Origin: an uncultured Planctomycetota bacterium | Lineage (GTDB): Bacteria > Planctomycetota > Planctomycetia > Isosphaerales > Isosphaeraceae | Direction of reading: 5' to 3' | DNA: 64,000 nucleotides | NCBI GenBank assembly: GCA_963737655.1 | Contig: CAVTTN010000002.1 | Coordinates: 5,952,001 to 6,016,000, forward strand | Shown here: in pieces, positions 3-27,531 of the stretch | How positions within the stretch are numbered: the stretch's first letter is position 1 | Layout: every line of letters starts with the position of its first letter | Position numbers and translations under genes: made by a program | The notes under the pieces: generated by a model | Seen by the model: only the letters and a program-made list of their open reading frames with translations | What the model was told of the DNA's origin: nothing | The model's database searches: none

Positions 3-260
3 GGCACCGACGACACGCTCCGGGACGGCGTCTCGCGGGCCACCGGCCTGGCCGATGCGTTCCTCCGCGGCCTAAACGCCAGCGGGATGGCGGCCGTGCT
101 CGGCCATCCTCCTGGGGACGAGTTCGACCAGCGGCCGAACCTCGACCTCGCCGTGACCCAGTTCACGGCCTGCCGCCTCCTGCTGGCGATGGACATCCTC
201 CAGTGCCTCGAAGCCGGCGCGGTCTCCCACTGGAAAGGTGGCCATTTTGCAACCGCTTGA
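3..260 (+). CDS. 3' end of an unknown protein (starts before the window), overlapping the helicase start
   Basis: Frame from base 3 is open (GTDDTLRDG...WKGGHFATA*) to TGA at 258-260 and overlaps the GTG at 238, suggesting translational coupling. Confidence 0.55.
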   Translation, partial: GTDDTLRDGVSRATGLADAFLRGLNASGMAAVLGHPPGDEFDQRPNLDLAVTQFTACRLLLAMDILQCLEAGAVSHWKGGHFATA

Positions 261-3200
261 CGCCCTGAAGTTGACCGACTCGCTTCGCAGGAGGCTCGTA
301 GAGTTCACGGCCGATGACCACCACGTCCGAGACGCCCGGCTCCGCGCCATCGCCCGGGAGATCTGGTCGGGACCTCCCGCCGAGGGCGGGTTGACGAGCG
401 ACCTGTGGGTCGAGTCCTCGCCGCCGGCCCTGGCCTCCGTGACGAGCCTGGGGGACCTCGTCCGCCACGGCGACTTCGACGGCTGGCTGGCCGACCAGCT
501 CGACCGGGCCGGGGCGGTCCCCGGGCACCGGCCGCTCTACGAGCATCAACTCCGGGCGATCGAGGCGGCGAGGGCCGAGGGTCTGCCCGGCAGGCCGGCC
601 CTGGTCGTGACCGCCCCGACCGGCTCGGGCAAGACCGAGAGCTTCCTCCTGCCCGTCCTCGACGACCTCGCCCGAACCCCAAGGAACCCCGGGGTCCGGG
701 GCATCCGTTCCCTGATCCTCTATCCGATGAACGCCCTGGTGAACGACCAGGTCGATCGGCTCCATTCCTGGCTCCGGGGCCAGGACCGGCTCACCCTCTT
801 CCACTTCACGTCCGAGACGCCCGAGGACTACAAGGCTGCGGTGAACCGTGACCTGCCGCCCTTCGACGCGAGCCGGATGAGGACCCGCGAGCAGGCCCGG
901 GGGCGCGAGGACCATCGGGGCGTCAAGGTCCCGGGCCACCGCGAGCGGGGCCCTCAGCCGGACGTCCTGATCACCAATTATTCGATGCTCGAATACATGC
1001 TCTGCCGTCCCCAGGATGCGATCTTCTTCGGGCCGGCGTTACGATCGATCGTCCTGGACGAGGCCCACCTCTACACCGGGACGCTCGCGGCCGAGATCGC
1101 CCTGCTGCTCCGTCGAGTCCTGGAGCGCTGCGGCCGGGCGCCCTCGGACGTCCTCCACGTCGCGACCTCGGCCACCCTGGGCCGGGGAGACTCGTCCGAG
1201 CTAGGGGCCTTCGCGGCCACCCTCTTCACCAAGCCCCGCGAACTCGTCCAGGTGATCGAAGGACGCAGCGCCCGCAACCTAATGGCCGTCCCGAGCCCGC
1301 CTCCGGTCCCCCCCGAAGCCGCCTCGGTCGCGGGCCGAGCCTGGCTGACCGGCCCGACCCTCGTCGCCGACCCCGCCGGAGAGGTCCGCCTGAACGTCTC
1401 GGATAGGGACTGCCGGGCCCTGGCCGACGACCTCCGGGCGATCGTCGGAGGCGACGAGGTAAACGCGGCGCCGGGCGCCTGCGGCGATCGCCCGGCCGTC
1501 CTCCTCCGAGACGCCTTGGAGCATGCGCCGATCCTCCATCGGATCGACGACGAATTGCACGGGAAGCGTCACATGAGGCTGGACGACCTGGCGGCTCGGG
1601 TCTGGAGACGATCCGACGACGAGGCGGTCGGGGCGACGATCAAGCTCCTCCAGGCCGGGGCGGCGGCCCGGGACTCGCCGGGGGCCTACCCGCTGCTGCC
1701 CCACCGGCTCCATACACTGGTGAGGCCCGCCGACGGGCTGGTCGTGTGCTTGAACGCGGAGTGCTCGGGCCGGTCCGACCGGAAGCTCGACGGCCTCGGC
1801 CGGGTCTGGCCGGGAAGGTCCGACCTCTGCGGATCGTGCGGGTCGGCCGCGATGAGCCTCCATCGCTGCGCCCATTGCGGCGAGTGGGGGCTCGCCGCGG
1901 TGGAGATGGACGGCCGATATCGGCCCGCCCCGCCCCGCCCGAACGAGGGCGCCGTCGTTCGATTCGCCACGATGGCCATCGACGGCGCCAAGGCGATCGG
2001 CGTGGCGCCGAGGGACGGCCGGAGGACGTCGTCGGGGGCGCTCAGGCTCTGGCCGGTCGAGGACTGCCCGAGGTGCGGGGCCTCGGCGGCCAGGGAATGG
2101 AGCCCGTTCGAGTCGGGGGCCGCGCTGTCCCTCTCGATCGTGGCCGAGACCCTGCTGGCGGGCCTGCCCGAATTCCCGTCGCCCGGGGCGATCGTGAGGC
2201 CCGCGAGGGGCCGCCGCCTCCTGGCCTTCAGCGACAGCCGGGCCGAGGCCGCCCGCCTCGGCCCGCGGCTGACCCTCCAGCACGAGATCCAGGTCGCCCG
2301 CGCCGCCATCGCCCGATTCGTCGAGGGCGGCGGATCGGCGGCCGACGCGGCGCGGATCGGCGACCTGGCCGAGGACCTCGAGACCCTGGGGCGAAGGCGC
2401 GAACGGCCGGGGCTGACCGGCCCGCAGCGCGAGGGCATCGAGCGAGACATCGCGGCGAAGGAACGCGAGCTGGAGGCCGCGCGGCAGGGCGGGACGATCG
2501 ACCAATGGACCGACTCGCTGGCGAAGAATGCCGAGAGCGGGACGATCCTCCGCGAATTGCTCGACGCCGACGCCGGGGAGAAGCATCAGGCGGCCGAATG
2601 GTCGGCGAAGTCCTGGGAGGAGAACGAGGCAGCCATCCGCAGGAGGCTACCGAACCTGATCGCCCGAGAGCTGGCGGCCCGACCTCGCGGCCGGATCTCG
2701 CTGGAGACGGCCGGGCTAGTCGAGGTCGTCTATCCGCGGCTCGACGCGGTGGCGGCCGACCCCGCGTTCCTCGGGTCGATGTCGTCGGCCGCCGCCCGGA
2801 GCGAGCTGCGAGCCGCCTGGCACGGCCTCCTGGCCGCGATCTGCGACGCGGTCCGCTCCGACGGCGCCGTCACCCTCGGCGAGGAAGGGGACCGCGATTA
2901 CCCCCTGGGCGAGAACCTGGTCGGCCGGTGGTGCTCGGCCGACGGCGAGGGGTATCGCCTGTTCCGGCTCGTCGGTACGACCGAGAGGCAGGCCCGCCGC
3001 CGGTTCGCCGCGTCGGTCCTGGAGGCCGCGGGCCTCCCCGGGCGCGAGGCGACCGAGCGGGCCCCGGACCTCCTGCGATCGGCGTTCGAGGCGATCCGAT
3101 CGTCGGGCCTGCCGTGGTTGGAGACGACGGGCCGACCGGCGGAGGGCGGGGAGGTCCCGGCGATCCGAGTCGTCTTCGCGAAGCTGGGGCTGAGGCGCCC

Positions 3201-5478
3201 CGCGACCCCATTCCTCTGCGAGACGACCGGCCATTTCTAGCCAAGGTCGGTCCTGGGCTGCGCCCCCGAGGCCGGGTGCGTGGGCCTGAGGGCCGTCGAC
3301 GACGACGCGCTCGACCGGGACCCGAGGCTGGGCCGCCTCCGTCGGGAGTTCAAGGCCTCGGAGATCTTCGCCCTGGGCCTCTGGGCCGAGGAGCATAGCG
3401 CCCAGCTCGACCCCCCGGAGAATCGTCGGCTCCAGGACCTCTTCCGCGCGGGCCTGCGGAACGTTCTGAGCTCGACGACCGCGCTGGAGCTGGGGATCGA
3501 CATCGGCGGCCTCTCGGGCGTGCTGATGGGGAACGTGCCCCCGGGCAAGGCGAATTACCTCCAGAGGGCCGGGCGGGCCGGCCGCCGGGCCGACGGATCG
3601 TCGCTCGTCGTCACGTTCGCCCGGCCCCGGCCCTACGACCGCGAGGTCTTCGGCGACCTCGGCGGCTATCTCGCCCGCCCCCTGAGGTCCCCGACGGTCC
3701 TCCTCGGCCGGGAGCGGCTTGGCCTCCGCCACGCCCGCGCCTTCCTCCTCGGCGAATTCTTCCGCGCCGTGTACCCCGAGGGCCACAAGGTCGGGGCCAT
3801 GCGTGCCTACGGCCTGATGGGCGGCTTCTGCGGGGTGGAGCGGGTCCAGTCCTTCTGGAAGTCCGGCAAGCCGCGCCCTCCGGCCTCGGCCGATCTCCCC
3901 TACGTCCTGCCGGGCGGCCTCCCGTGGAAGGCGGACGGGGAGGCCGGGCTGGCCGGCGGGTTCCTCGCATTCCTTCGCTGGGCCGAGACGTCGGAGGGGA
4001 TGACTCGCCTCTCGCAGCCCCTGGGGGCCGTGCTCCACGACACCCCGGCCGCCGCCGGATTGGCCCGGTGGGACGGATTCCTCCGGGACGTTCGCGAGAA
4101 GTTCGCCGCGGAGATCGGCCGGTGGCGGGCCGACTACGCGGACGTGCTCGCCGCGTGGAAGGCCGTCGAGGGCGACGACCCCGGCGACCGGGCGCGGGCC
4201 AATGCCGTCTGCTACCAGCTCGACACGCTCGCCGACACCACCGTGATCGAGGTCCTCGCCGATCGTCAGGTCCTGCCCCGCTACGGCTTCCCGATTGGGA
4301 TGCTCAAGCTGAGGGTGGTCGTCCCCAGGACGGATCGGTCGGGCCGGGAGCGAGGCCGCGAGGAGGACCGATTCCGACTGGAAAGGGGCGGCCTGCTCGC
4401 CCTCCGCGAGTACGCGCCCGGCTCGAAGCTCCTGGCCGGCGGCAAGGTGGTGACCTCGCGAGGCCTGATGAAGCACTGGACCGGCGCGAACGTGAACAGC
4501 GCCTTCGGGCTGAGGGGACTCGGGTCGGAATGCGAGGACGGGCACTACTCGTATCGGATCGACTCTCAGGAGTCCTTCGACGAATGCCCGGTCTGCGGGG
4601 CCGGCCCCAGGCGCCCCCCCGACGAGCTGCTCCTGCCCCGGCACGGGTTCACCAGCGCCCTGTGGGACCCCCCGCGACGACGGACCGAGGTCGAGTCCGT
4701 CGGGAGCGTCGATCGGGCCACCATCAGCTTCGCCCGAGGGGGCTCCGGGGCGGCCCGCGCCGAGGATTTCGGCGGCGTCCCCGGCCTCCTCGCGCTCTAT
4801 CGGGAGGACGGCGAGATCCTCGTCTACCACCGGGGCGAACACGCGAACGGCTTCGCCGTGTGCGTCAAGTGCGGCTACGCCGAGAGCGAGCCGAGGAGGA
4901 AGCCCGGGGAGGCGGCCGACGGGCTCGTCGGGCTGCCGAAGAGCTTCAGCCGCCATGCCTCCCTCGACGACGCCAAAGGGAAGTCCCCATGCCTGAGGTC
5001 CGGCGATCCGCCCCCCCTGCGTCGCCGGGTCCTGGCGGCGAGGGAGACGACCGACGTGCTGCTGCTGGACCTCGATCGGTGCCTGCCCGCGACGGTCGAC
5101 GACAAGGAGGCCGAGGCCGTGATCGAGACGCTCGGGCGGTCCCTGCTCGCCTCGGGCTCCAGGCTCCTGGACCTCGACACCCGGGAGCTCGGTGGCTTCC
5201 CCCTGGGCCGGGGGATCGTCCTCCACGACAACGTCCCGGGGGGCGCCGGACACGTCGGCGAGCTCTTCGAGAAGCATCGGGACCGGGACGGCGGCCGGTC
5301 CTGGCTGGAGGAGGCCCGCCGCATCCTCCGGGGCGACGACGCCCACGACGCCCGCTGCGAGACCGCCTGCCTCGACTGCCTCCTGACGTTCGACGTCCAG
5401 GACGCCATGAGCCGCGGGATGCTGAGGCGTCGGCTCGCCCTGGAGGCCCTGGAAGCGATGCTCGGAGCGGCCGGCTGA
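238..5478 (+). pseudogene. Large DEAH-box SF2 helicase with Cys clusters and C-terminal DUF1998-like domain (DruE/Hrq1-SftH-like), interrupted by one in-frame TAG at 3238-3240
   Basis: ORFs 238-3240 and 3280-5478 are in the same frame. Motifs: Q motif LYEHQ, PTGSGKT, YPMNALVNDQ and LDEAH before the stop; LELGIDIG, QRAGRAGR, LPRYGFP, EYAPG and CETACLDCLL after it. Confidence 0.8.
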
Positions 5479-5570: not shown

Positions 5571-5620
5571 GGTCGTTGCCGGTGCCGGGGGATCGGTGCC
5601 GTACCTCGGGGAGGCAGGCC

Positions 5621-6592
5621 GTGAAGGTCGCCACGCGGTTCGCCATGCAAAGGATCGCCGCCCTGGACCGGGCCGTCCGGGCCGGCGAGTATCGCAACGC
5701 GTCGACCCTGGCCCGGCTCCTCGAGGTCGATCGCCGGACCGTCCAGCGTGACATCGAGTTCCTCCGAGACCGACTCGGCGGCCCCCTGGAGTTCGACGCC
5801 CGGCGGAACGGCTATCGCTACGCCGACCCCGACTACCGCCTCTCCTTCCTGGACCTGGACGAGAGCGAGCTGATCGCCCTGTTCCTGGCCGAGGGGGTCC
5901 TGAGGCAGTACCGGGGCACCCCGTACGCCGCCGACCTCGCCTCGGCCTGCCGGAAGATCGCCGCCGGGACGGCCGGGACGGCGGCCGGCGAGGCCGAGGC
6001 GCACTCGTTCCGCCTGACTGCCCCGTCCCCCCTGGACCCGGGCGTCTATGAGGCCCTCCTCGCGGCGATCCGTTCCCGGTCCCGCCTGGCGATCCGCTAC
6101 TACTCGGCCTCGCGCGACGAGGAGGCCGACCGCCGGATCGACCCGTACCACGTGGCCACGATCGACGGCAGCCCCTACCTGATCGCCCATTGCCACGCCC
6201 GGGGCGAGATCCGCATGTTCGCCCCCTCCCGGATCCGGGGCCTGAAGGCGACGGGCGAGACGTTCGACCCGCCGGTTGACTTCCGCGTCGAGGAGGACCT
6301 CGACGGGTCGTTCGCCGTGCTCCGCGGCGGGCCGGCGCACCACGTCCGGCTGAGGTTCTCCGGCCTGGCCGTCCGCTACGTCCGAGAGCGGGTCTGGCAC
6401 CCCAGCCAGTCGGTCGAGGACCGGCCCGACGGCTCGTTGGACCTCACCCTGACCGTCGATCACCTCCGCGAGGTCGAGCGATTCGCGCTGTCCTGGGGAC
6501 CGGACTGCCGGGTCATCGAGCCGGAGGCCCTCCGGGACCTCGTGGCCCGGGCCCTGGCGCTCGCGGCGGCCCAGTACGGGCCCCCGCGGTGA
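5621..6592 (+). CDS. HTH-WYL-WCX transcriptional regulator
   Basis: GTG after GGAGG. HTH LARLLEVDRRTVQRDIEFLRD; WYL-type RRIDPYH...YLIAHCHARGEIRMF..SRI; C-terminal ALSWGPDCRVIEPEALR. Confidence 0.9.
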   Translation: MKVATRFAMQRIAALDRAVRAGEYRNASTLARLLEVDRRTVQRDIEFLRDRLGGPLEFDARRNGYRYADPDYRLSFLDLDESELIALFLAEGVLRQYRGTPYAADLASACRKIAAGTAGTAAGEAEAHSFRLTAPSPLDPGVYEALLAAIRSRSRLAIRYYSASRDEEADRRIDPYHVATIDGSPYLIAHCHARGEIRMFAPSRIRGLKATGETFDPPVDFRVEEDLDGSFAVLRGGPAHHVRLRFSGLAVRYVRERVWHPSQSVEDRPDGSLDLTLTVDHLREVERFALSWGPDCRVIEPEALRDLVARALALAAAQYGPPR

Positions 6593-6659
6593 TCGGCAAG
6601 CGGGACCGAGTGGCTCTGTTGTGACCCTTCTGCCGCCCCGATTCCCGAAGAGGCCCGAG

Positions 6660-9047
6660 ATGGACGAACCGCAGGAACCTCGATACGCCCACACGCTCGA
6701 GGGGGCCGGTACGGACCGGTGGCAGACAATGCAAAAGCACCTCGCCGGGGTCGCTCGTCTCGCGGGGGACCACGCCGGGGCCTTCGGCTCGCGGGCCTGG
6801 GGTGAGTTGGCCGGGCTCTGGCACGACCTGGGCAAGTACGCCGAGGATTTCCAGTCGTACCTCAGGGCGTCCTCGCGAGACCCGGCGATCCTCGATGCCT
6901 CGGTGCTCGACGAACCGCGCGGACCGGGAAAGAAGGTGGACCATTCCACCGCCGGGGCCGCGTTCGTGTATGAGAAGTGCCAGGGAAAGCTCGGGGGAAG
7001 AGAGAGGAACGAGCTTCCCCCGACGGCCTTGACGCTGGCGATGGTCATCGCCGGGCACCACGGCGGGTTACCCAAGAGGTGTCAATTTGAGCAAGAACGG
7101 TTGACCGCCGAAGAGAAAACTTCCAGGCTCCGGGCCGCCAAATCGGGCGGCGCCCCGAGCGACCTTCTGGCCCACGAGTTACCCCCGCCACCGGACTTCC
7201 TGCGGCCCGAGGCTCTGCAAGGCGCGGCGTCCTCGCGGGAGGAACGCCTGCGGTTGTTCCAACTCCGCCACGAATTCTGGACCCGCATGCTCTTCTCGGC
7301 GCTGGTCGATGCCGACAGCCTGGACACCGAGGCGTTCTGCAACCCCGAGCGGTCCCGGGTCCGAGACCGGGCGAAGGGGGACGAAACCCTGCTGACCCGC
7401 ATGAAGGAGCGGCTCGACGCCCACCTCCTCCGCGTGGCGGACCGGGGGCGGGAGCGGGCGGATTCCCTCCCCGCCGGCGCCCGCGAACGGGCCGAGGCCG
7501 TCCTGGACCTCCGGGCCCGGGTCCTCGCCGCCTGCCGAGGCCGGGCCAAGGCGCCCCCCGGCCGTCGCAGCCTCACGGTCCCGACCGGCGGCGGCAAGAC
7601 GCTCTCGGCCCTGGCCTATGCCCTCGAACATGCGATCAAGAACGGGCTCCGCCGGGTGATCGTGGTGATCCCCTTCACCAGCATCATCGACCAGACGGCC
7701 GGGGTCTATCGCGACGCCTTCGGCGACGACCTGGCCGAATTCGTGATCGAGCACCACAGCAACCTCGACCCCGAGCGAGAGGAGTACCACAGCCGCCTGG
7801 CCTCGGAGAACTGGGACGCCCCGGTGGTCGTCACCACCAGCGTCCAGTTCTTCGAGAGCCTCTTCTCCCACAAGAGGTCGGCGACGCGGAAGCTCCACAA
7901 CATCGCCCGGAGCGTGGTCGTCTTCGACGAGGTCCAGACGCTCCCCCATGAGCTTCGCGAGCCGATCTTCGACGCCCTGAACGAGCTGGTGGACCACTAC
8001 GGCGTGTCGGCCCTGTTCTGCACCGCGACCCAGCCGGCCCTGTCGCTGAAGCAGGTCGGCCTCCAGGACTTCCCGCATCTCGTTGACGTGGAAGAGGTCA
8101 TCGACGACGTCGGCGCCCAGTTCGGGGCCGTCGCAGATCGGGTGAGCGTCGAGTTTCCCGAGGACGATGGGCCCACGACCTGGGAGGCCCTGGCGGCCCG
8201 GGTCCGCGAGCACGACCGGGCCCTGGCGATCGTCCACCGTCGCGACGATGCCCGCCTCCTCGCCGAAGCGGTCGGCCCGGGGACCGTCCACCTCTCGACT
8301 CGCATGTGCCCCACCCACCGCCGGGAGGTCATCGAGCGGATCAGGGCGGACCTGGCCGCGGGCCGTCCGATCCGAGTCGTGAGCACGACTTTAATTGAAG
8401 CCGGCGTCGATCTTGACTTCCCCACGGTCTTCCGCGCGCTCGGGGGGGCCGATTCCTGCGCCCAGGCTGCTGGCCGATGCAACCGTGAAGGCCGGCTGAC
8501 CGACGCGGAAGGCTACCCCATCCCGGGCCGCCTGATCCTCTTCCGCGCCCCCAGCGACCCGCCCCCGGGCTTGAGGCTCGGACTCCAGGTGGCCGACACT
8601 CTTCGACGATCGGGCGACCCCCTGGACCTGTTCGACCCGACGACGTTCGACCGCTATTTCCGAGAGTATTTCTCGTCGATCAACGTTGACCGGACCGAGG
8701 TGACCCTCTCACGCACGGAGCGGGATTTCCCCGAGGTCGATGCCCGATTCCGCATCATCGAGGAGGACGGGAAGGCCGGCGTGGTTGTTCCCTACGGCGG
8801 CTTCGAGGCCGGCGTCCGGGACTACGAGCGCGACCCCTGCCGCCGCACGCTACGCGGACTGCAACCGTTCCTCGTCAATGCCCACGAACATGATTTGGCG
8901 TTCTTCAGGAAAGAGGGATTGATCCAAACGATCCACGAGCAGGTCCATGTGTTGAGGGCGCCGGGTCCGCAGTATGACCCGACCTACGGACTGATCGTGG
9001 ACCGGGTCGTCCCGGCCGATCCCGGGGCGCTCATCACGGACCCCTGA
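6660..9047 (+). CDS. cas3: Type I-C Cas3 (HD nuclease + helicase), system A
   Basis: HDLGK, IAGHHGGL, LFSALVDADSLDT, VPTGGGKT, FDEVQ, EAGVDLDF, QAAGRCNREG. Confidence 0.95.
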   Translation: MDEPQEPRYAHTLEGAGTDRWQTMQKHLAGVARLAGDHAGAFGSRAWGELAGLWHDLGKYAEDFQSYLRASSRDPAILDASVLDEPRGPGKKVDHSTAGAAFVYEKCQGKLGGRERNELPPTALTLAMVIAGHHGGLPKRCQFEQERLTAEEKTSRLRAAKSGGAPSDLLAHELPPPPDFLRPEALQGAASSREERLRLFQLRHEFWTRMLFSALVDADSLDTEAFCNPERSRVRDRAKGDETLLTRMKERLDAHLLRVADRGRERADSLPAGARERAEAVLDLRARVLAACRGRAKAPPGRRSLTVPTGGGKTLSALAYALEHAIKNGLRRVIVVIPFTSIIDQTAGVYRDAFGDDLAEFVIEHHSNLDPEREEYHSRLASENWDAPVVVTTSVQFFESLFSHKRSATRKLHNIARSVVVFDEVQTLPHELREPIFDALNELVDHYGVSALFCTATQPALSLKQVGLQDFPHLVDVEEVIDDVGAQFGAVADRVSVEFPEDDGPTTWEALAARVREHDRALAIVHRRDDARLLAEAVGPGTVHLSTRMCPTHRREVIERIRADLAAGRPIRVVSTTLIEAGVDLDFPTVFRALGGADSCAQAAGRCNREGRLTDAEGYPIPGRLILFRAPSDPPPGLRLGLQVADTLRRSGDPLDLFDPTTFDRYFREYFSSINVDRTEVTLSRTERDFPEVDARFRIIEEDGKAGVVVPYGGFEAGVRDYERDPCRRTLRGLQPFLVNAHEHDLAFFRKEGLIQTIHEQVHVLRAPGPQYDPTYGLIVDRVVPADPGALITDP

Positions 9048-9060
9048 GCCGGGTCTTCGG

Positions 9061-9082
9061 TTCGCAGTAGCGAAATTTCCAA
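9061..9082 (+). promoter_or_regulatory. TTC PAM plus protospacer-like site in the AT-rich cas3-cas5 intergenic (probable promoter) region
   Basis: TTC at 9061-9063, then GCAGTAGCGAAATTTCCAA, which matches 9207-9225 at 17/19 positions. Confidence 0.75.
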
Positions 9083-9169
9083 AAATTCCCCGAACGCTCC
9101 CGGACGAGGGCCGTTCTTGGATCGGGCGAAGGTGCCCCACGCTCCTCGGGGCACCGATCGGCCGCGACG

Positions 9170-9240
9170 CGGCGGCCGACCGTCCCGGCGGCGTGTGGGT
9201 TGAAACGCAGTGGCGAAGTTTCCAATCCCCGAAAGGAGCA
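9170..9240 (+). ncRNA. CRISPR-like regulatory RNA element: solitary degenerate repeat plus promoter-matching guide in the cas5 5' leader
   Basis: Hairpin GCCG(A)CCG-TCC-CGGCGGC, then GTGGGTTGAAAC identical to the 3' end of the array repeat (ends at 9206), then GCAGTGGCGAAGTTTCCAA. Confidence 0.75.
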
Positions 9241-9917
9241 TGAATGTGACGAATGCCGAACGCACCTACCGTGTCCGAATCCGCGGCGAATGGGCCTGCT
9301 TCACCAGGCCCGAGCTCAAGACCGAGCGCGTGTCCTATCATGTGATCACGCCTTCGGCCGTCCGGGGGGCGGTCGAAGCGGTGGTCTGGAAGCCGGCGAT
9401 CCGCTGGAACGTCCACCGGATCGCGGTCCTGGCGCCGATCAAGTTCGCCTCGGTCAAACGGAACGAGGTGAACCGGGTCATCCCCACGCGGAACGCCCGG
9501 GCCCTGATGAGGGGCGAGGAGGTGCCCGACTACTTCGCCGACGAGGACCGGGCCCAGCGCAACGCGCTGGTCTTGCGGGACGTGGACTACGTCGCCGAGG
9601 TCTCGTTCGCGATGACCCGCCGCGCCGGCCCGGAAGACAACCCCCTGAAGTTCGACGAGATGTTCCGCCGCCGCCTGGAGCGGGGCCAGTACCACATGAG
9701 CCCGTACCTCGGCACCCGCGAGTTCCCCGCGATCATCGAGCCGGCCGGTGACGAGGACTGGAAGCCGATTGCCGTCGATATGGACCTCGGCCGGATGCTC
9801 CTGGACATCGACTACGGCCGCCCCAACCGCCCGGTCTTCTTCGAGGCCCGCATGAAGGGCGGCGTGATCGAGGTCCCGGCCATGAGCCGTCGCGAGGACG
9901 GCGAGGTGGGCGCATGA
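9240..9917 (+). CDS. cas5: Type I-C Cas5 (Cas5d), system A; start is ATG 9240 or GTG 9246
   Basis: GEWACFTRPELKTERVSY..ITPSAVRG, KRNEV, PYLGTREF; RBS AAGGAG at 9233-9238. Confidence 0.95.
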   Translation: MNVTNAERTYRVRIRGEWACFTRPELKTERVSYHVITPSAVRGAVEAVVWKPAIRWNVHRIAVLAPIKFASVKRNEVNRVIPTRNARALMRGEEVPDYFADEDRAQRNALVLRDVDYVAEVSFAMTRRAGPEDNPLKFDEMFRRRLERGQYHMSPYLGTREFPAIIEPAGDEDWKPIAVDMDLGRMLLDIDYGRPNRPVFFEARMKGGVIEVPAMSRREDGEVGA

Positions 9918-11731
9918 TCCTCAAGGAGCTGGCCGACCTGGCGAAGCGCGAGGGGCTGGTCGAGGACCCCGACTTCGAGCCCAAGCCCGTACGGTGGATC
10001 GTGCACATCGGCCTGGATGGGCAATTCTTCGGAATGGTCGACACGCGGGTTGAGGTCGACGGCAAGGCCCGGCCCAAGGTCCTCCAGGTGCCCCGCGCTC
10101 CGGTCCGGACGAGCGGATCGGCGGCGAACTTCCTCGTGGACAAGGCCGAATACGCCCTCGGATACGACCCCGACGAGAACCCGAGGAAGGTCCCGAAGCT
10201 GGCGCTCCACCGCTCCCTGTTCGCCGCGTCTGTCGAGACGGCGCTGACTCTGGCCCCCGACGACGCCGGCCTGAAGGCCCTGCTCGCCTTCGTCCGGGAC
10301 GACGCGGCGGTCTCCGGGGCGATCGGGGCCGTCCGGGGAAAGGCCGCCGCGAATGACCTGTTCGCGTTCCGCGCGATGCTCGGCGACGAGTCGGGCATGG
10401 TCCACGACCGCGAAGCCGTACGCTCGGCCTGGAAGGCGATGCGGCACCCGGCCGTCGAGGCGGGCGCCGACCTCCCGGAATGCCTCGTCTGCGGGGGCAG
10501 GGCCCCGGCCGTCGCCCACCCGCAGGTCAAGAGGATCCCCGGGGGCTCGACCTCGGGCATCGCGATCGTGTCGTCGAACGCAAGCGCCTTCGAGTCCTAC
10601 GGCCAGGAGGGGAACGAGGGAGCGCCGATCTGCCGCGAGTGCTCCGACTCCTACGGGACGGCCCTGAGCCGCCTGTTCCACCCGCAGTATACCGCCCCCG
10701 ACGGCCGGACCTTGCCCCGCCGGTCCTTCCGGCTCTCCGACGACACCGGGGTCGTCTACTGGGCCTCAGGAGCGGAGGAGCATCAGTTCGAAAACGAGAT
10801 CGGAGAACTCGATTTCGAGGACGCAGGCAAGGCCGGGGCGTTGTTCGAGGCCGTCCATTCCGGCAAGGGCGTCCTCCTCGGGGATACCACGCCGTTCCAC
10901 GCCCTGATCGTCACCGGGGGGCAGGGCCGGGCGACGCTTCGGAGCTACTTCCAATCGACCGTCGGCGAGGTCGCGGCGCATTTGCGGGAGTATTTCGAGG
11001 ACATCGAGATCGTCCGGCGGTTCCCGAACTCGCCGAGGTGGCCGCCGCTGTCGTGGCTGGTCCGCTCGCTGGCGGCCCAGGGGAAGTTCGAGAACGTGGC
11101 GCCGGCCCTCGCCGGCCGGCTGTTCCTGGCCATCCTCTCGGGCGAGTCGTTCCCCGCCGAGGTCCTCTCGGCGGCGATCGCCCGCATCCGCTCCGAGCCC
11201 GAAAAGCCCGACCAGGGGAAGTACAAGCACACCCGCGAACGGATGGCTCTGATCCGCGCCACGATCAACCGCTGGCTGAAGCCCCACGACCAGCGGGCCC
11301 CCGATCACCGAGTCGCCTCCCTGATCCGAAAGGAGATCCCGCCCGTGCTCGACGAGACCTGCTCCAACAATGCCTATTGCCTGGGCCGTCTGTTCGCCGT
11401 CCTGGAGAAGCTCCAGGGCGAGGCGATCGGCAAGGTCAACGCCTCGATCGCCGACCGCTTCTACGGGGCGGCCTCGGCCACTCCGGCGTCCGTCTTCGGC
11501 ACGCTCCTGCGCAAGGCACAGAGCCATCTCGCGAAGATGTCCGGGCCGTTCTACGTCCAGAAGATCCAGGAGGTGATGAACCTCCTAAGCCCGCCCGAAC
11601 CCTTCCCGACGACCCTCACCCTGGCCGAGCAGGGCCTGTTCGCCCTGGGTTACTACCAGCAACGGGCCGAACTCTGGACCAAGAAGCCCTCCCCGCAAGA
11701 CGACGCGGCCGGGTCCGAGACGAACTCCTGA
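9914..11731 (+). CDS. cas8c: Type I-C Cas8c/Csd1, system A
   Basis: MILKEL start, ANFLVDKAEY, AFESYG, AYCLGRLFAVLEKLQ, EQGLFALGYYQQ; ATGA overlap with cas5. Confidence 0.93.
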   Translation: MILKELADLAKREGLVEDPDFEPKPVRWIVHIGLDGQFFGMVDTRVEVDGKARPKVLQVPRAPVRTSGSAANFLVDKAEYALGYDPDENPRKVPKLALHRSLFAASVETALTLAPDDAGLKALLAFVRDDAAVSGAIGAVRGKAAANDLFAFRAMLGDESGMVHDREAVRSAWKAMRHPAVEAGADLPECLVCGGRAPAVAHPQVKRIPGGSTSGIAIVSSNASAFESYGQEGNEGAPICRECSDSYGTALSRLFHPQYTAPDGRTLPRRSFRLSDDTGVVYWASGAEEHQFENEIGELDFEDAGKAGALFEAVHSGKGVLLGDTTPFHALIVTGGQGRATLRSYFQSTVGEVAAHLREYFEDIEIVRRFPNSPRWPPLSWLVRSLAAQGKFENVAPALAGRLFLAILSGESFPAEVLSAAIARIRSEPEKPDQGKYKHTRERMALIRATINRWLKPHDQRAPDHRVASLIRKEIPPVLDETCSNNAYCLGRLFAVLEKLQGEAIGKVNASIADRFYGAASATPASVFGTLLRKAQSHLAKMSGPFYVQKIQEVMNLLSPPEPFPTTLTLAEQGLFALGYYQQRAELWTKKPSPQDDAAGSETNS

Positions 11732-11794: not shown

Positions 11795-12826
11795 ATGTCC
11801 GAACCGTCTCAGCCCGTCGATCGCCGCCACGAGTTCGTCCTGTTCTTCGACGTCCAGGACGGCAACCCCAACGGCGACCCCGACGCCGGCAACGCCCCCC
11901 GGATCGACCCTGAGACCGGCCAGGGGCTAGTCACCGATGTCTGTTTGAAGCGCAAGGTCCGCAACTTCGTCCAGCTCACCCAGGCCGAGGGCCAGGGGGC
12001 CGAGCGGAGGCCGATCGGCGGTTACGAGATCTACGTGAAGGAGCGGGGCATCCTCGCCGCCGAGCAGAAGAAGGCCTATTCGGCGATCGGCAAGGAACCC
12101 GACAGCCGGACCGCCACCGTGAAGGAGGCCCGCGCCTGGATGTGCAAGACCTTCTTCGACGTCCGGGCCTTCGGCGCCGTGATGAGCACGGGCAAGGCGG
12201 GCGACGAGGACGCCGAGCCTAGGGCCGAGAAGGGGACGAAGGACAAGGACGCGCCCGCCAAGAAGAAGCCGGCCGGTGCGCAGAAGCACTGGAATTGCGG
12301 GCAGGTGCGGGGGCCGATCCAGCTCTCGTTCTCGCGGTCGATCGACCCGATCCTCACCCTGGAGCACGCGATCACGCGAGTGGCCCTGACCAACAAGGAC
12401 GACACCAAGCGGGGCCAGGATCTCACCGGCGAGGGCGAGGAGGCATCCAGCGGGCAGATGGGCCGGAAGTCCACGGTCCCCTACGCCCTGTATCGGGGCC
12501 ATGGCTTCGTCTCCCCCTACCTGGCGCTGGATACTGGCTTCACCCGGGCGGACCTCGACCTGTTCTGGAAGGCCCTGGTCGGCATGTTCGATCACGACCG
12601 CTCCGCCTCCCGGGGGGTGATGGCCGCCCGGACGCTGATCGTCTTCGAGCACGCCTCGGCCCTGGGCAACCACCCGGCTCACCGCCTGTTCGAGCGTGTG
12701 AAGTGCGCTCGCACGCCGGAAGACGACCCGACCCGGGCGAAGCGGCCCGCCCGGAGGTTCGAGGATTACCGGGTCACGGTCGATGAGTCGGCCATCGAGG
12801 GGGTCACGATCCGCTCGCTGATCTGA
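11795..12826 (+). CDS. cas7: Type I-C Cas7/Csd2, system A
   Basis: GNPNGDPDAGNAPRID, TDVCLKRKVRN, FDVRAFGAV, QVRGPIQ, FDHDRSASRG. Confidence 0.96.
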   Translation: MSEPSQPVDRRHEFVLFFDVQDGNPNGDPDAGNAPRIDPETGQGLVTDVCLKRKVRNFVQLTQAEGQGAERRPIGGYEIYVKERGILAAEQKKAYSAIGKEPDSRTATVKEARAWMCKTFFDVRAFGAVMSTGKAGDEDAEPRAEKGTKDKDAPAKKKPAGAQKHWNCGQVRGPIQLSFSRSIDPILTLEHAITRVALTNKDDTKRGQDLTGEGEEASSGQMGRKSTVPYALYRGHGFVSPYLALDTGFTRADLDLFWKALVGMFDHDRSASRGVMAARTLIVFEHASALGNHPAHRLFERVKCARTPEDDPTRAKRPARRFEDYRVTVDESAIEGVTIRSLI

Positions 12827-12902: not shown

Positions 12903-13562
12903 ATGGAGATCGACGACTACCTGCCGCTCTCGGCGCTCCAGCACCTGATCTTCTGCGAGAGGCAGTTCGCCCTGATCCACGTCGAGGGGATCTGGGCCGA
13001 GAACGAGCTGACGATCTCCGGCCGCCAGCTCCACGAGCGGGCCGACCTCCCCGGCCAGTCCCTCGGCGCCTCGATCCGCGTCTCCCGGGCCCTGCCGCTC
13101 CGCTGCGATCGCCTCCGACTCTCGGGCAGGGCCGACGTGGTCGAGTTCCACCGCGAGGCCGGCCCCGGAGGCCCCGTCTGGCGCCCCTTCCCCGTCGAGT
13201 ACAAGCGGGGACGACCCAAGAGGGGCGGGGCCGACGAGGTCCAGCTCTGCGCCCAGGCCCTCTGCCTCGAGGAGATGACCGGGCTGGACGTCCCTCGCGG
13301 GGCCCTCTTCTACGGGACCACGAGGCGGAGGAAGCCGGTCGAATTCGATGCCCCCCTCCGGGCCCGGGTCGAGGCCGCCGCCCTCAGGTGCCATGCCCTG
13401 TTCGACGCCCGCTCGACCCCGAGAGCGACGCGGGACCGACGATGCGACCGCTGCTCCCTGCTCGACTTCTGCCTGCCGGGCGTGACGGGCCCGGCAGCCC
13501 CCCCGACGATCGACCCCGCCGACCCCCGACGCTACGCCCTTGTCCCGGAGGCCCCCCCGTGA
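12903..13562 (+). CDS. cas4: Cas4, system A
   Basis: LSALQHLIFCERQ, GRADVVEF, PVEYKRG, VQLCAQALCLEEM, CDRCSLLDFC. Confidence 0.95.
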   Translation: MEIDDYLPLSALQHLIFCERQFALIHVEGIWAENELTISGRQLHERADLPGQSLGASIRVSRALPLRCDRLRLSGRADVVEFHREAGPGGPVWRPFPVEYKRGRPKRGGADEVQLCAQALCLEEMTGLDVPRGALFYGTTRRRKPVEFDAPLRARVEAAALRCHALFDARSTPRATRDRRCDRCSLLDFCLPGVTGPAAPPTIDPADPRRYALVPEAPP

Positions 13563-14593
13563 GCGCCTACCACAACACCCTCTTCGTCACCACCCCCGGC
13601 GCCTACCTCGCCAAGGACCGCGAGAACCTGGCCGTGAGGGTCGAGCACCAGACCCGGCTCGCCGTCCCCTTCCACCACCTCGGCGGGGTCGTCTGCCTCG
13701 GGCCGGTCTCGGCCAGCCCCGAGCTGATGGCCGCCTGCGCCGAGAGGGGCATCGGCCTGTCCTTCCTCGACGGGGACGGCCGGTTCCTCGCGCGGGTGGA
13801 GGGGCCGGCCTCCGGCAACGTCCTGCTCCGCCGTCGCCAGTATCGCCTCGCCGACGACCCGGTCGCCGCGGCGGGGCTGGCCCGGTCCTTCGTCGTCGGC
13901 AAGGTGGCGAACGCCCGGGCCCTGATCGTCCGCTCCGCCCGCGAGCAGAAGGACCCGGCCCGCTCGGCCATCCTGGACTCGGCCGCCACGAGGCTCTCCG
14001 AGCGGCTCGCCGACCTGGGCAGGCCCGGCCAATCGCTCGAGACCGTCCGCGGCCTCGAAGGAGAGGCCGCCGCCACTTACTTCGCCGCCTTCGACGCCAT
14101 GATCCGCGCCGCCGACCCCGCCCTCCGGTTCGCGACCAGGAGCCGCCGCCCCCCGAGGGACCCTGTCAACGCGATGCTGTCGTTCGCCTACGCCCTGGTG
14201 CGTCACGACTGCACCTCGGCCCTCGCCGCCGTGGGCCTCGACCCGGCCGTCGGCTACCTGCACGCCGACCGGCCCGGGCGGCCCTCGCTCGCCCTGGACC
14301 TGATGGAGGAGTTCCGCCACTCCCTGGCCGACCGGCTCGTCCTGGCCATGATCAACCGCGGGCAGGTCTCGCCCTCGGGGTTCGTGAGCGACCCGGCCGG
14401 CGGGGTCGCGATGGACGCCGCGATGCGCAAGGCCGTCATCGTCGCCTACCAGGAACGCAAGCAGTCGTCGCTGACCCACCCCCTGACCGGCGAGGCGACG
14501 AGCTTCGCGATCGTGCCCCACATCCAGGCCCGCCTCCTGGCCCGGACGATCCGGGGCGACCTGGACCCCTATCCGCCGTTCCTCGTCCGTTGA
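13559..14593 (+). CDS. cas1: Type I-C Cas1, system A
   Basis: GTGA overlap with cas4. NTLFVTT, SGNVLLRRRQY, RGLEGEAA..YF, RRPPRDPVNAMLSFAY, LALDLMEEFR. Confidence 0.96.
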   Translation: MSAYHNTLFVTTPGAYLAKDRENLAVRVEHQTRLAVPFHHLGGVVCLGPVSASPELMAACAERGIGLSFLDGDGRFLARVEGPASGNVLLRRRQYRLADDPVAAAGLARSFVVGKVANARALIVRSAREQKDPARSAILDSAATRLSERLADLGRPGQSLETVRGLEGEAAATYFAAFDAMIRAADPALRFATRSRRPPRDPVNAMLSFAYALVRHDCTSALAAVGLDPAVGYLHADRPGRPSLALDLMEEFRHSLADRLVLAMINRGQVSPSGFVSDPAGGVAMDAAMRKAVIVAYQERKQSSLTHPLTGEATSFAIVPHIQARLLARTIRGDLDPYPPFLVR

Positions 14594-14613
14594 ACCTCCG
14601 AGGGGACCCCGCC

Positions 14614-14904
14614 ATGTTCGTCCTGGTCTGCTACGACGTCTCGACCACGACCCCGGCCGGCCGTCGGCGACTGAGGAGGGTGGCTCGCCTCTGCAAAGAC
14701 TTCGGCCAGCGGGTCCAGCAGAGCGTCTTCGAGTGCGACGTCGGCGAGGCGCAATGGGTGACCCTCCGACCGGCCCTCCTCGCGGAGTTCGACCCGAACG
14801 AGGACAGTCTCCGCTTCTACCGCCTCGGGGAGGCCCCCTCGTCCCGGGCCGAGCATCACGGGGTGCGGCCCTCGGTCGATTTTCAGGGTCCGCTGATCGC
14901 CTGA
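14614..14904 (+). CDS. cas2: Cas2, system A
   Basis: MFVLVCYDV...RRLRRVARLCKDFGQRVQQSVFEC...DSLRFY. Confidence 0.95.
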   Translation: MFVLVCYDVSTTTPAGRRRLRRVARLCKDFGQRVQQSVFECDVGEAQWVTLRPALLAEFDPNEDSLRFYRLGEAPSSRAEHHGVRPSVDFQGPLIA

Positions 14905-15164: not shown

Positions 15165-18132
15165 GTTCCCCTCGTCGACGAGGCGAGGGGTGGGTTGAAA
15201 CAACTCGGTGAGTCCGAGGAAGCATAGCCTGACGGGTTCCCCTCGTCGACGAGGCGAGGGGTGGGTTGAAACGATATGCCTTGAAGCCACCCGCCATCCC
15301 CGACAAGTTCCCCTCGTCGACGAGGCGAGGGGTGGGTTGAAACATCGCCAGGGCGACGACCCCCCGCGCCTCCAGGGCGTTCCCCTCGTCGACGAGGCGA
15401 GGGGTGGGTTGAAACGCGTAGGCGTAGAAGTGGGTCGGCTGGCCCCGGGTTCCCCTCGTCGACGAGGCGAGGGGTGGGTTGAAACTGCTCCCGGCCGCCG
15501 GCCACATCTGGCAGATCGAGTTCCCCTCGTCGACGAGGCGAGGGGTGGGTTGAAACCTCGCGTTCGGCTGGGCCCGGGGCAAGGACATCGTTCCCCTCGT
15601 CGACGAGGCGAGGGGTGGGTTGAAACACGCCGGGGGGTGACCCCGAGGCGTCTCCGCTGGTTCCCCTCGTCGACGAGGCGAGGGGTGGGTTGAAACCCGT
15701 CCGCATCCACCGGACGACCGACCGGCATGGTTCCCCTCGTCGACGAGGCGAGGGGTGGGTTGAAACCGCGACTACGCCTACACCGCGTGCCGGTGGAGGG
15801 GTTCCCCTCGTCGACGAGGCGAGGGGTGGGTTGAAACGGTGCCTTGCGCGACGTCCAGCGAGGGCTGTCGCGTTCCCCTCGTCGACGAGGCGAGGGGTGG
15901 GTTGAAACGCGATCCCCCCCCCAACGTCGGCGGCGGCCCCGTGTTCCCCTCGTCGACGAGGCGAGGGGTGGGTTGAAACGACACGATCGCCTCCACGCCC
16001 TCCGCGCCGTACCGTTCCCCTCGTCGACGAGGCGAGGGGTGGGTTGAAACTCCCAGATCTTCGTGGCGAGGCCCTCGAACGGGCAGTTCCCCTCGTCGAC
16101 GAGGCGAGGGGTGGGTTGAAACTCGAACTGGCCCCGGCGGACGAGCTCCTCGTGCAGGTTCCCCTCGTCGACGAGGCGAGGGGTGGGTTGAAACGCCAAT
16201 TTCGTGGAATTGCTGGCCATCTCCTGGCGTTCCCCTCGTCGACGAGGCGAGGGGTGGGTTGAAACGTCGCCGGCTACGGCAACGACGGCACGAGCCTGCC
16301 GTTCCCCTCGTCGACGAGGCGAGGGGTGGGTTGAAACGTTGAGGGCCTCGGCATCGAGCCAGTGGGGCGGCGTTCCCCTCGTCGACGAGGCGAGGGGTGG
16401 GTTGAAACCTTCCAGCAGACCGAGTGTCGATCGACCCCGGCCGGTTCCCCTCGTCGACGAGGCGAGGGGTGGGTTGAAACCGGAACCAGGGCCACGACTC
16501 GGCCGAGGAAGCCCAGGTTCCCCTCGTCGACGAGGCGAGGGGTGGGTTGAAACAGTTGCGGGCCGACGTCGCTGGGGTGCGACCTGGGCGTTCCCCTCGT
16601 CGACGAGGCGAGGGGTGGGTTGAAACCAGTACAAGCAGGAGGTCCTGGACCACGGCACCGGGTTCCCCTCGTCGACGAGGCGAGGGGTGGGTTGAAACAG
16701 GCCGCGGTCAAGAAGCGGCTGAGCGGCGAAAAGTTCCCCTCGTCGACGAGGCGAGGGGTGGGTTGAAACGGTTCAGGGGTTGATAAGGCGGAGGACCTCG
16801 ACCCGTTCCCCTCGTCGACGAGGCGAGGGGTGGGTTGAAACCATGATGAGGCGGAGCCGGCAGCACCGGGAGTGGCGTTCCCCTCGTCGACGAGGCGAGG
16901 GGTGGGTTGAAACATGTCGAGCAGGAAGCCCGTCCTGCCGCCCGAGCTGTTCCCCTCGTCGACGAGGCGAGGGGTGGGTTGAAACCGGCTCTTCGACGAC
17001 ATCATGCGGGACGAGGACATGTTCCCCTCGTCGACGAGGCGAGGGGTGGGTTGAAACCTTGCGCGAGTGCAACGCCGAGATCGACCGCGAGCTGGTTCCC
17101 CTCGTCGACGAGGCGAGGGGTGGGTTGAAACCTCGAGTCGGACCGCCGGGAGGACGCCGGCGCGGGGTTCCCCTCGTCGACTAGGCGAGGGGTGGGTTGA
17201 AACCGGCCACCTGGACCCCTCGACGCGTGCCGAAGCGTTCCCCTCGTCGACGAGGCGAGGGGTGGGTTGAAACTTCGGTGGCCAACCGGAACGCGAGCAA
17301 TTCGTCGTTCCCCTCGTCGACGAGGCGAGGGGTGGGTTGAAACCCGACGGACTGGGGCCGGCGGCTTCGGGCCGGGGCGTTCCCCTCGTCGACGAGGCGA
17401 GGGGTGGGTTGAAACGGGTCCAGGTCCGGCCGGATCGCCTTCAGCTCGGCCGTTCCCCTCGTCGACGAGGCGAGGGGTGGGTTGAAACGGCCCCGACGGC
17501 TATCCCGAGATCGAGGCGTTCGCGTTCCCCTCGTCGACGAGGCGAGGGGTGGGTTGAAACTGGTCGGGCGGTCCCGGGGCCGGCCTCCGCGACGGTTCCC
17601 CTCGTCGACGAGGCGAGGGGTGGGTTGAAACATTACGGCCAGGACGGCGCGTCGGTGGCGATCGGTTCCCCTCGTCGACGAGGCGAGGGGTGGGTTGAAA
17701 CAGGTCGGCCAGGGTCTTCGCGAGGTCGGCGAGCTGGTTCCCCTCGTCGACGAGGCGAGGGGTGGGTTGAAACACCTACGCGACGACGCCGGCCCAGACC
17801 GGCTCGCGGTTCCCCTCGTCGACGAGGCGAGGGGTGGGTTGAAACGGCGACGACGAGGCGACGATCGCCGCGTTGGCGGGGTTCCCCTCGTCGACGAGGC
17901 GAGGGGTGGGTTGAAACTCGGAGGTCGAGGACGTCCAGTGGGACCGCAAGGGGTTCCCCTCGTCGACGAGGCGAGGGGTGGGTTGAAACTCGGCCACCTG
18001 GGCCCGCAACACGTCCACGGGCGGTTCCCCTCGTCGACGAGGCGAGGGGTGGGTTGAAACTATTCGACCGCCGTGAACCGCGCCGGCCTCACCGGGTTCC
18101 CCTCGTCGACGAGGCGAGGGGTGGGTTGAAAC
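15165..18132 (+). CRISPR. Array A: 42 repeats of 37 nt (GTTCCCCTCGTCGACGAGGCGAGGGGTGGGTTGAAAC), 41 spacers of about 33-37 nt, plus a degenerate terminal repeat near 18166-18200
   Basis: Counted by eye. One variant repeat at 17167 (GACTAGG). The repeat has a hairpin and a GAAAC end typical of type I-C. Confidence 0.98.
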
Positions 18133-18763: not shown

Positions 18764-18870
18764 GTTTCAATCAGCTCCCGACTCAGAGGCCGGGAGAGGC
18801 GTGAAGTCCGCTCGCATGGTCGCTCCCCTCCGCGTTTCAATCAGCTCCCGACTCAGAGGCCGGGAGAGGC
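18764..18870 (-). CRISPR. Array B mini-array: two identical 37-nt repeats (GCCTCTCCCGGCCTCTGAGTCGGGAGCTGATTGAAAC on the - strand) and one 33-nt spacer
   Basis: Repeats at 18764-18800 and 18834-18870, spacer 18801-18833. Possible eroded third repeat ending near 18729. Lies downstream of cas2 B with a leader-sized gap. Confidence 0.9.
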
Positions 18871-19118
18871 GGCCCTTCCCCAAGTGGCTCGGGCGCAGGG
18901 ATTTGCGAACAAGCCTTCGCGGACCTCGTCGGGATGCGGCCGAGGCCCGGTCGGTTATGGGGAGAGGGACTGCGTAAGGGTTCATGGGTCATGGATTTCG
19001 GACGATCGCGGACCCCCCGGCCCGACGCCGGAACGGGGGGTCCGCGATCCGTTCGACTCTACGTGGAAGCCTTCCGACTTGTCAAAGAGCGCGGGCCGAC
19101 CGGGGCTTCGGCCTCATC

Positions 19119-19409
19119 TCAGAGGATCAGGGGGCCGTCCAGGTCGAGCGGGGCGTTGACCCCGTGGTGCTCGATTTTCCTTCGGACGGCCTCGTCCAAA
19201 GGATAGATCCTCAGGCTGTCCTCGGCCGGGTCGATCTCACCCAGCAACGCCTCCCTGAGGAGGACCCATTGCTCCGGGCCGACCAGGCACTCGAAGACCG
19301 ACTGCTGGACGCGCTGGCCGTAGTTCTTGCAGGCCGTGGCCACGCGGCGGAGGCGTCGGCGGCCGGCCGGGGTGGTCGTGGCCACGTCGTAGGTCACGAG
19401 GATCAGCAT
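19119..19409 (-). CDS. cas2: Cas2, system B
   Basis: MLILVTYDV...RRLRRVATACKNYGQRVQQSVFEC. Confidence 0.95.
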   Translation of the reverse strand: MLILVTYDVATTTPAGRRRLRRVATACKNYGQRVQQSVFECLVGPEQWVLLREALLGEIDPAEDSLRIYPLDEAVRRKIEHHGVNAPLDLDGPLIL

Positions 19410-19422
19410 GGTCGGGCGGGCC

Positions 19423-20454: not shown

Positions 20455-20487
20455 GGAGGGCGCCTCCCGGGTCGCCGACGGGGGGTT

Positions 20488-22121: not shown

Positions 22122-22163
22122 GGAACGGCGTCCTTTCTTGGTGGCGCGAGGGGGTCGTCCGGG

Positions 22164-24940: not shown

Positions 24941-25109
24941 CGCTCCTTTCGTGGCGTTGTCGGTTCGGAGGTGTCGAAGGGCGGGGCGAAGTCACGGCGA
25001 TCCGCGGCGATGCGATGGAGGTCGGGGGTCATCCGAGGGAGAGGGAGACATCCCCGGCCCGAGCGGCCTCGGGCCGGGGGCCCTTCGGTCCGCCACCGAT
25101 CGGGAGGGT

Positions 25110-27440: not shown

Positions 27441-27531
27441 GGCGTCCTCGCCCATCCGCGCCGTGGCCCGCACCGACATGGTCCGGCCTGGGTCGTCGAG
27501 CCACCCCCGCGGATGACTGCACGCAGGTTTA

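Follow-up and report, generated by a model that had tools for sequence, protein, structure and literature searches.

Results

A solitary repeat within a complete type I-C locus

The window, by which we mean the whole 64,000-nt stretch of planctomycete DNA analysed here, carries a complete type I-C locus on its + strand: a WYL regulator, cas3, cas5c, cas8c, cas7, cas4, cas1, a cas2-like ORF and a CRISPR array. The regulator gene (5576..6592; Pfam WYL, WCX and HTH_11) lies upstream of cas3 (6621..9047; HD and helicase, from its ORF and Pfam), which is followed by cas5c (9246..9917; TIGR01876 above cut-off), cas8c (9914..11731; Pfam Cas_Csd1) and cas7 (11795..12826; Pfam Cas_Cas7). The cas4, cas1 and cas2-like genes occupy 12903..14904 (the last, at 14614-14904, was named by eye), and the array (15165..18132) has 42 repeats of 37 nt and spacers of 33-37 nt, which show only short partial matches (16-30 nt) to their own genome, as is typical of GC-rich DNA. 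Rfam at gathering thresholds returned no match in the window. A large helicase-like gene in two frames (238-3240 and 3280-5478; named by eye) precedes cas3 on the same strand and, together with the WYL regulator 5' of cas3, suggests a defence island whose cas operon is under control at the protein level.

A second type I-C-like system (18764-27479, - strand) faces the first. Its cas3 is split over two frames beside a transposase gene (27548-28465), and it also has cas8, cas7, cas4 and cas1 and a cas5 (24203-24940; Y/K/Y at the triad positions discussed below, by eye), with only two repeats (18764-18801 and 18834-18871). We found no handle 5' of this second cas5.

The cas3-cas5c gap of the first system is 198 nt long and contains a self-target, a solitary degenerate repeat directly before cas5c, and a guide, all on the + strand. 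A TTC PAM, the type I-C consensus, lies at 9061..9063, 14 nt past the cas3 stop, and is followed by the self-target (protospacer; 9064..9082). The repeat consists of an extended stem (9138..9195; predicted only) and an 11-nt 5' handle (9196..9206), and Cas5c would by analogy cut at 9195/9196. The spacer-like guide region (9207..9245) is at the same time the cas5 leader: its part at 9207-9225 pairs with the target, while the Shine-Dalgarno sequence of cas5, GAAAGGAG (9231..9238), occupies guide positions 25-32.

Handle, stem and hairpins

The handle is an exact copy of the last 11 nt of the array repeat, and the 7.6-Mb genome has only two other handle-like 11-mers outside the array. The arms of the predicted stem (9138-9143/9190-9195) sit flush at the handle, just as the array repeat's stem does. 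This flush stem is 6 bp long in the window, against background rates of 19% for 6 bp and 9% for 7 bp; stems of 6-11 bp and varying sequence sit flush in 8/8 clade loci with upstream DNA, although these are kin and not independent. In one relative (L098; handle end 219), the loop of the repeat stem encloses a second handle-like sequence 17 nt 5' of the working handle, which itself ends in T rather than C.

The perfect 8-bp hairpin described in the first-pass annotation (hairpin A, 9131..9155) is indeed present. It is nevertheless not taken as the stem of the repeat, because 40 nt lie between its end and the handle and because it competes with the flush stem, the two being mutually exclusive. 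Which of the two wins depends on the RNA ends. Folding of one fixed segment gave the flush pairing a probability of 0.14 vs 0.80 for hairpin A, whereas 5' ends at 9100-9134 gave 0.17-0.71 vs 0.00-0.28. A second perfect 8-bp hairpin, missed earlier, is predicted at the tip of the extended repeat stem (hairpin B, 9158..9179).

The absence of a second repeat was borne out: in 9208-9400 the array repeat is matched, without gaps, at no more than 18/37 positions (background mean 18.4, 95th percentile 21) and a second handle at no more than 7/11, not above background. There is no 3' hairpin after the guide either (positions 20-75 fold at -8.7 kcal/mol, z -0.14), and the 3' end of the guide therefore has no visible boundary. 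A perfect hairpin in the coding sequence (~9291-9310) was considered as a conserved stop for Cas7 and rejected, as clade members use different codons there and do not keep the pairing in register (by eye).

The guide and its self-target

Guide and target match over 19 nt, a length reached by 0/3000 shuffled guides; the sole mismatches fall on positions 6 and 12, where the bases are flipped out. Genome-wide, 9064-9082 is the best of 289 PAM+seed sites for this guide; no trans target was found in its own genome, the next best of these sites matching over only 10 nt.

Further on, TCCCCGAA is common to guide (positions 20-27) and target (positions 24-31; 9087..9094), 4 nt out of register, as noticed earlier. 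It is only modestly beyond chance, because its last three bases are fixed by the Shine-Dalgarno sequence and an 8-nt run appeared in 508/20000 shuffles. As for the idea that this offset prevents self-cleavage, the offset is one way to truncate the match; 4/6 clade targets just diverge after 10-16 nt, with no off-register run longer than 4 nt. Off-register tails of 6 nt are also seen in G095, with an offset of 3, and in L034, with an offset of 1.

The cas5 ribosome-binding site lies inside the guide

The ribosome-binding site AAGGAG was correctly placed in the first-pass annotation at 9233-9238 (guide positions 27-32) and is part of the fuller GAAAGGAG, which is complementary to the 16S 3' end of the same genome. 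The likely start codon is GTG 9246, which lies 7 nt from the Shine-Dalgarno sequence and aligns with the start codons used in L031, L099 and L102-L105. The in-frame ATG 9240 is disfavoured, being 1 nt from the Shine-Dalgarno sequence, and relatives start at the GTG position. Judging by the array spacers (33-37 nt), the next repeat would be expected at 9240-9244; with ATG 9240 at position 34 and GTG 9246 at position 40, the earlier remark that the start codon falls where a downstream repeat would begin is accurate within 2-6 nt.

The guide-to-Shine-Dalgarno interval leaves no room for a terminator, and because nothing separates guide and cas5, the guide-bearing transcript must continue into cas5. 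This agrees with the earlier proposal of a self-targeting guide whose precursor runs into cas5, and the predicted Cascade span (about 9196-9245) would, as also proposed, cover the Shine-Dalgarno sequence. Both cas5 genes of the window (9231-9248; ~24933-24951, - strand) begin with GAAAGGAG, 1-2 nt, ATG, 3 nt and GTG, and these are the only two occurrences of the pattern in the genome; the tandem start could yield two N-termini or reflect shared ancestry.

Guides and targets co-vary among relatives

Our clade set comprised 11 distinct loci including the window, with Cas5 72-100% identical, after merging of duplicates (L001/L110; L002 with L031; L003/L108 with L094; L004/L032/L101/L109 with L096; L100 with L099). 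The closest relatives belong to the same family of genomes, L031 being labelled Isosphaeraceae, Planctomycetota. A handle is present within 110 nt of cas5 in 9/11 of these loci (window included), and L099 and L102 have neither repeat nor cargo gene (see below). In the relatives the upstream ORF runs into the repeat or stops right next to it. Handle-like matches 5' of cas5 were present in four of 96 more distant loci: a true guide-target unit in L034, array ends in L043 and L045, and a one-mismatch copy in L015. The compact handle-plus-cas5 layout, searched for as exact patterns that miss variants, appeared in 2/401 genomes of the phylum including its own, and in no viral contig.

Co-varying targets were found in six of the nine repeat-bearing loci, with a different guide, a correspondingly different target and a TTC, TTT or CTT PAM in each. 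The window match is the longest of the six (TTC, 19 nt), the others being L105 (TTT, 16 nt), L094 (CTT, 15 nt), L096 (TTC, 14 nt), G095 on its cas3 contig (TTC, 13 nt) and L103 (TTC, 10 nt). Mismatches within these matches occur only at positions 6 or 12, the sites adjoin the cas3 stop or lie some distance past it, and 0-2 of 3000 shuffles reached the observed lengths in the five loci tested. TTT and CTT are functional type I-C PAMs in Legionella (PMC5602111). No targets were found for L097, L098 and L104 on their contigs, which end short of cas3.

A possible trans target exists for the guide of L031: a second, intergenic match next to a CTT PAM (16 nt, mismatched at 6 and 12; G095:C97:15557-15573, L120:1501), which is longer than the match to its cis target and lies ~13 kb from cas3 on the same contig. 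L034 (7698, - strand; 7895-7960) is a gammaproteobacterial type I-C locus with a cargo-less solitary repeat and a strong 3' hairpin; its target has a TTC PAM, lies on the opposite strand and has a 1-nt off-register tail. At G689:C5:59751-59845 (L118) just 17 nt separate a handle from the cas5 start. The Shine-Dalgarno sequence follows this handle immediately, leaving no space for a guide, and no target was found; the handle may serve purely as a site in the cas5 leader that Cas5 binds or cuts.

Two spacing classes and a cargo gene

The nine repeat-bearing loci fall into two classes, with no locus between them. In the short class (L031, L103, L105 and the window) the handle-to-start distance is 35, 35, 36 and 39 nt and the Shine-Dalgarno sequence lies inside the guide; in the long class (L094, L096, L097, L098 and L104) the handle-to-Cas5-anchor distance is 87-107 nt, and a GC-rich hairpin begins 24-39 nt after the handle. 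The downstream fold has an MFE of -8.7 to -16.9 (z -1.0 to +0.1) in the short class and -17.9 to -30.7 (z -0.8 to -4.2) in the long class. On the Cas5 tree, which is poorly resolved and has no starred branch, the short class is scattered (4 changes; grouped in 0/200 bootstrap trees), and the window's nearest relatives are of the long class. The overlap of ribosome-binding site and guide had been regarded as integral to the element. This does not extend to the clade: the overlap recurs yet is dispensable, since five of the nine loci keep the hairpin and have their ribosome-binding site ~85-100 nt away behind it.

Between target and repeat, L094, L096, L103 and L105 carry an ORF of 166-209 aa (L094:10103-10732, L096:10930-11520, L103:1871-2371, L105:1481-2083), and a truncated version in L097 ends at 2071. 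All four full ORFs match ECF sigma-70 models (TIGR02937, E 5e-12 to 9e-8, one above cut-off), and a fold search with a structure model (pLDDT 71) returned only sigma factors, none below E 0.001. These genes diverge fast, being 20-32% identical. In L094 the stop codon falls within the handle and in L096 within the guide; in L103 and L105 it precedes the handle end by ~50 nt. The repeat therefore lies downstream of the targeted site, embedded in the operon message. Judged by sequence, the gene is a candidate CRISPR-supervised sigma factor.

In the window only ~45 nt separate target and repeat, with no ORF in 9048-9206 and no close homologue of the cargo in the genome. A module that once guarded cargo probably gave rise to the window element by deletion of its ECF-sigma-like gene.

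Discussion

Processing enzyme and promoter

Alignment places V47/K135/F136 of the window Cas5 at the triad positions, where solved Cas5c enzymes have H or Y, K and H. Among 107 Cas5 loci (counted after 11 duplicate rows were dropped), L/K/F or L/K/Y is found in 58. The lysine is the only invariant triad residue of the Cas5 family (PMC8524198), such triads are common and this genome, 88% complete, yielded no cas6, so that the window Cas5c is likely to be capable of cleavage; the Cas5 of the second system could also be a source of processing in trans. Cas5c cleaves the repeat at the 3' foot of its stem, so that an 11-nt handle remains, and recognises mainly the cut site and the handle (PMC8524198); it then remains bound to the handle like a clamp, and seven Cas7 subunits extend along the RNA (PMC7684278).

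In the described CRISIS loci, start sites lie 37-46 bp from the target (bioRxiv 10.1101/2024.12.27.630466). That spacing maps to about 9100-9128 in the window. We found no sigma-70-like promoter in 8900-9400, no TAnnnT within 80 nt of the window PAM (TAnnnT is present at +36 or +44 in 3/5 relatives) and no + strand terminator after cas3. The position of the target, just behind cas3 and, in relatives, 5' of the cargo, suits a CreR-type site at a cas promoter, but no promoter consensus was found; since a terminator after cas3 was not found either, a roadblock to read-through is equally possible. The PAM side is the blocking side for dCas9 and dCas12, and might be so for Cascade.

A probable self-regulating guide

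We favour, with a probability of roughly 0.6, a solitary-repeat regulatory guide, in which RNA is cut at 9195/9196, Cascade forms on handle and guide, and cas5-cas8c-cas7 are damped without recruitment of Cas3. We infer the steps of cleavage, loading and repression as follows. Cas5c would cut at the base of the degenerate repeat and release a handle-guide-cas5 RNA, Cascade would assemble on the 11-nt handle and the next 35-39 nt, covering the Shine-Dalgarno sequence, and host nucleases would mature the guide by trimming its 3' end; such trimmed ends have been reported among related RNAs, those of CRISIS included (bioRxiv 10.1101/2024.12.27.630466). The loaded complex would bind the TTC-flanked 9064-9082, where a 19-nt R-loop would repress cas5-cas8c-cas7 with no cleavage. 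It could do so by occluding a local promoter or by obstructing transcription that reads through from cas3; the polymerase would meet the PAM side of the target first. Type I-C Cas3 binds only a full R-loop (bioRxiv 10.1101/2023.08.05.552134). That the window element works as a self-regulating guide in some form is very probable.

Since one and the same stretch of RNA is both guide and cas5 leader, cas5 would no longer be translated from a transcript that serves as guide. We take this loss to be a real consequence of the compact layout, and the transcriptional loop to be the conserved, selected function. In the long class and in published units a Cas5c-cuttable 3' hairpin would free the guide and spare the Shine-Dalgarno sequence, whereas the short class could not do so. 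That the loss amounts to a meaningful second layer of translational feedback is doubtful.

A stronger version of this, in which the 35-39-nt layout exists for shut-off of cas5 (and coupled cas8c) translation by Cas5 and Cas7, so that two-level feedback was selected as such, seems unlikely. It would account for four loci that share one spacer length with the Shine-Dalgarno sequence inside, none intermediate between them and the five at 87-107 nt, for their failure to form one clade, for their lack of the strong downstream hairpin of the long class, and for the handle without a target 17 nt before cas5 in G689. Yet 5/9 loci work without the overlap, a seed of 14-19 nt plus a Shine-Dalgarno sequence plus 7-8 nt of spacing needs ~30 nt, so that plain compaction gives a similar distance, and perhaps only a small share of transcripts is consumed; the number of loci is small and the Cas5 tree has no starred branch.

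The unit might instead be a decaying relic, unprocessed or off any active promoter after cargo loss, with cas5 read through from the WYL-cas3 promoter. The missing cargo and -10 element, the competing hairpin A, the two of 11 clade loci without repeat and cargo (L099/L100 and L102), and the truncated cargo of the nearest relative, L097, with no target on its contig, would all fit. Against decay stand a perfect handle, an optimal PAM and the longest match of six, altered only at 6 and 12; moreover, the window guide is unlike those of all relatives, so that guide and target stayed matched after divergence, and L034 is another cargo-less unit with its target intact. We consider this reading improbable. 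Still less credible, and in our view very unlikely, is a Racr-like decoy repeat that titrates Cas5 and Cas7 irrespective of a DNA target. Solitary repeats can sequester Cas proteins (PMC10651486), but Racr repeats are encoded by phages or other mobile elements and act without a self DNA target, whereas the present element is chromosomal, lies within a cas operon and has a PAM-flanked self target that co-varies with the guide in six loci.

Returning to the regulatory guide, a bolder form of it can be put forward tentatively, with less than even odds. Cas7 polymerises until a hairpin stops it. In a hairpin-less regulator the cas5 leader would itself be the guide, Cas5c would decapitate the operon mRNA, Cas7 would bury the Shine-Dalgarno sequence, and the product would repress the operon; the switch between hairpin A and the repeat stem would set the share of messages sacrificed, and the layout would have arisen several times within a planctomycete clade that has an ECF sigma factor as its supervised cargo. 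If burial of the Shine-Dalgarno sequence is true, CRISPR systems would self-regulate at the mRNA level with their own message as guide, each message being either guide or template. More generally, the locus would extend RNA-guided Cascade autoregulation to a planctomycete clade, and its relatives offer a natural series (with and without cargo, 3' hairpin and repeat) in which to ask whether a type I-C regulatory guide needs a 3' hairpin and whether guide excision costs cas5 translation. The ECF-sigma-like cargo suggests that loss of Cascade, e.g. to an anti-CRISPR, could switch on a transcriptional programme, not a toxin.

Comparison with known systems

The missing second repeat had been put forward as perhaps undescribed; solitary repeats directly before cas5c are, however, a described type I-C form (bioRxiv 10.1101/2024.12.27.630466). 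The CRISIS type I-C loci reported there have the same layout, the same PAM and the same mismatches at 6 and 12, with RNAs of 48-50 nt and 5- to 60-fold promoter repression. Their SRUs (crlRNAs) resemble the window element in having a single degenerate repeat immediately 5' of cas5c, in the gap behind cas3, an 11-nt handle after a stem (weak and predicted in the window, clear in its relatives), in most cases no second full repeat, and an upstream match of about 16-19 nt with a TTC PAM; the CRISIS order of cas3, TTC-PAM target, cargo, solitary repeat and cas5c is exactly that of our cargo-bearing relatives. They differ in ending in a 3' hairpin that Cas5c cuts in vitro, which the window does not have, and in guarding immune cargo genes, whereas the window has no cargo and the cargo of five relatives is ECF-sigma-like; sigma factors are not among the cargoes in the CRISIS main text. 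The window guide also contains the cas5 Shine-Dalgarno sequence, unlike the described CRISIS SRUs, and the main text of that work has no mention of read-through, co-transcription or a terminator.

The element likewise resembles CreR of the CreR/CreA kind, for which a degenerate repeat, a conserved handle, limited PAM-flanked complementarity near a cas promoter, autorepression and cases with no toxin partner are described and type I-C examples are mentioned (bioRxiv 10.1101/2023.03.10.532045). The tested CreRs (I-B, I-E and V-A) nevertheless have a second, often very degenerate repeat, which the window does not, and the tested V-A CreR has its own putative promoter, while the window guide is found 3' of its target, within the leader of the very gene it would regulate. 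Stand-alone repeats occur in 34% of type I-C loci (Shmakov et al., PMC10120712). The SRUs of that survey can also lack the downstream repeat, and I-D 'empty' loci keep the unit without cargo, but its worked examples are I-E, I-F1, I-B and I-D mini-arrays with a downstream target in opposite orientation, unlike the window (PMC10120712); its main text mentions no cas5, ribosome, start codon, mRNA or translation.

In the literature searched we found no guide that overlaps a cas ribosome-binding site or is cut from a cas mRNA, although subscription papers and preprint supplements may hold compact or sigma-cargo cases. Because two features of SRUs and CreRs fail here (the 3' hairpin or second repeat, and the cargo), we regard the element as a variant rather than a member: its kind is already known, and what is new is the compact form, with guide and ribosome-binding site on the same RNA.
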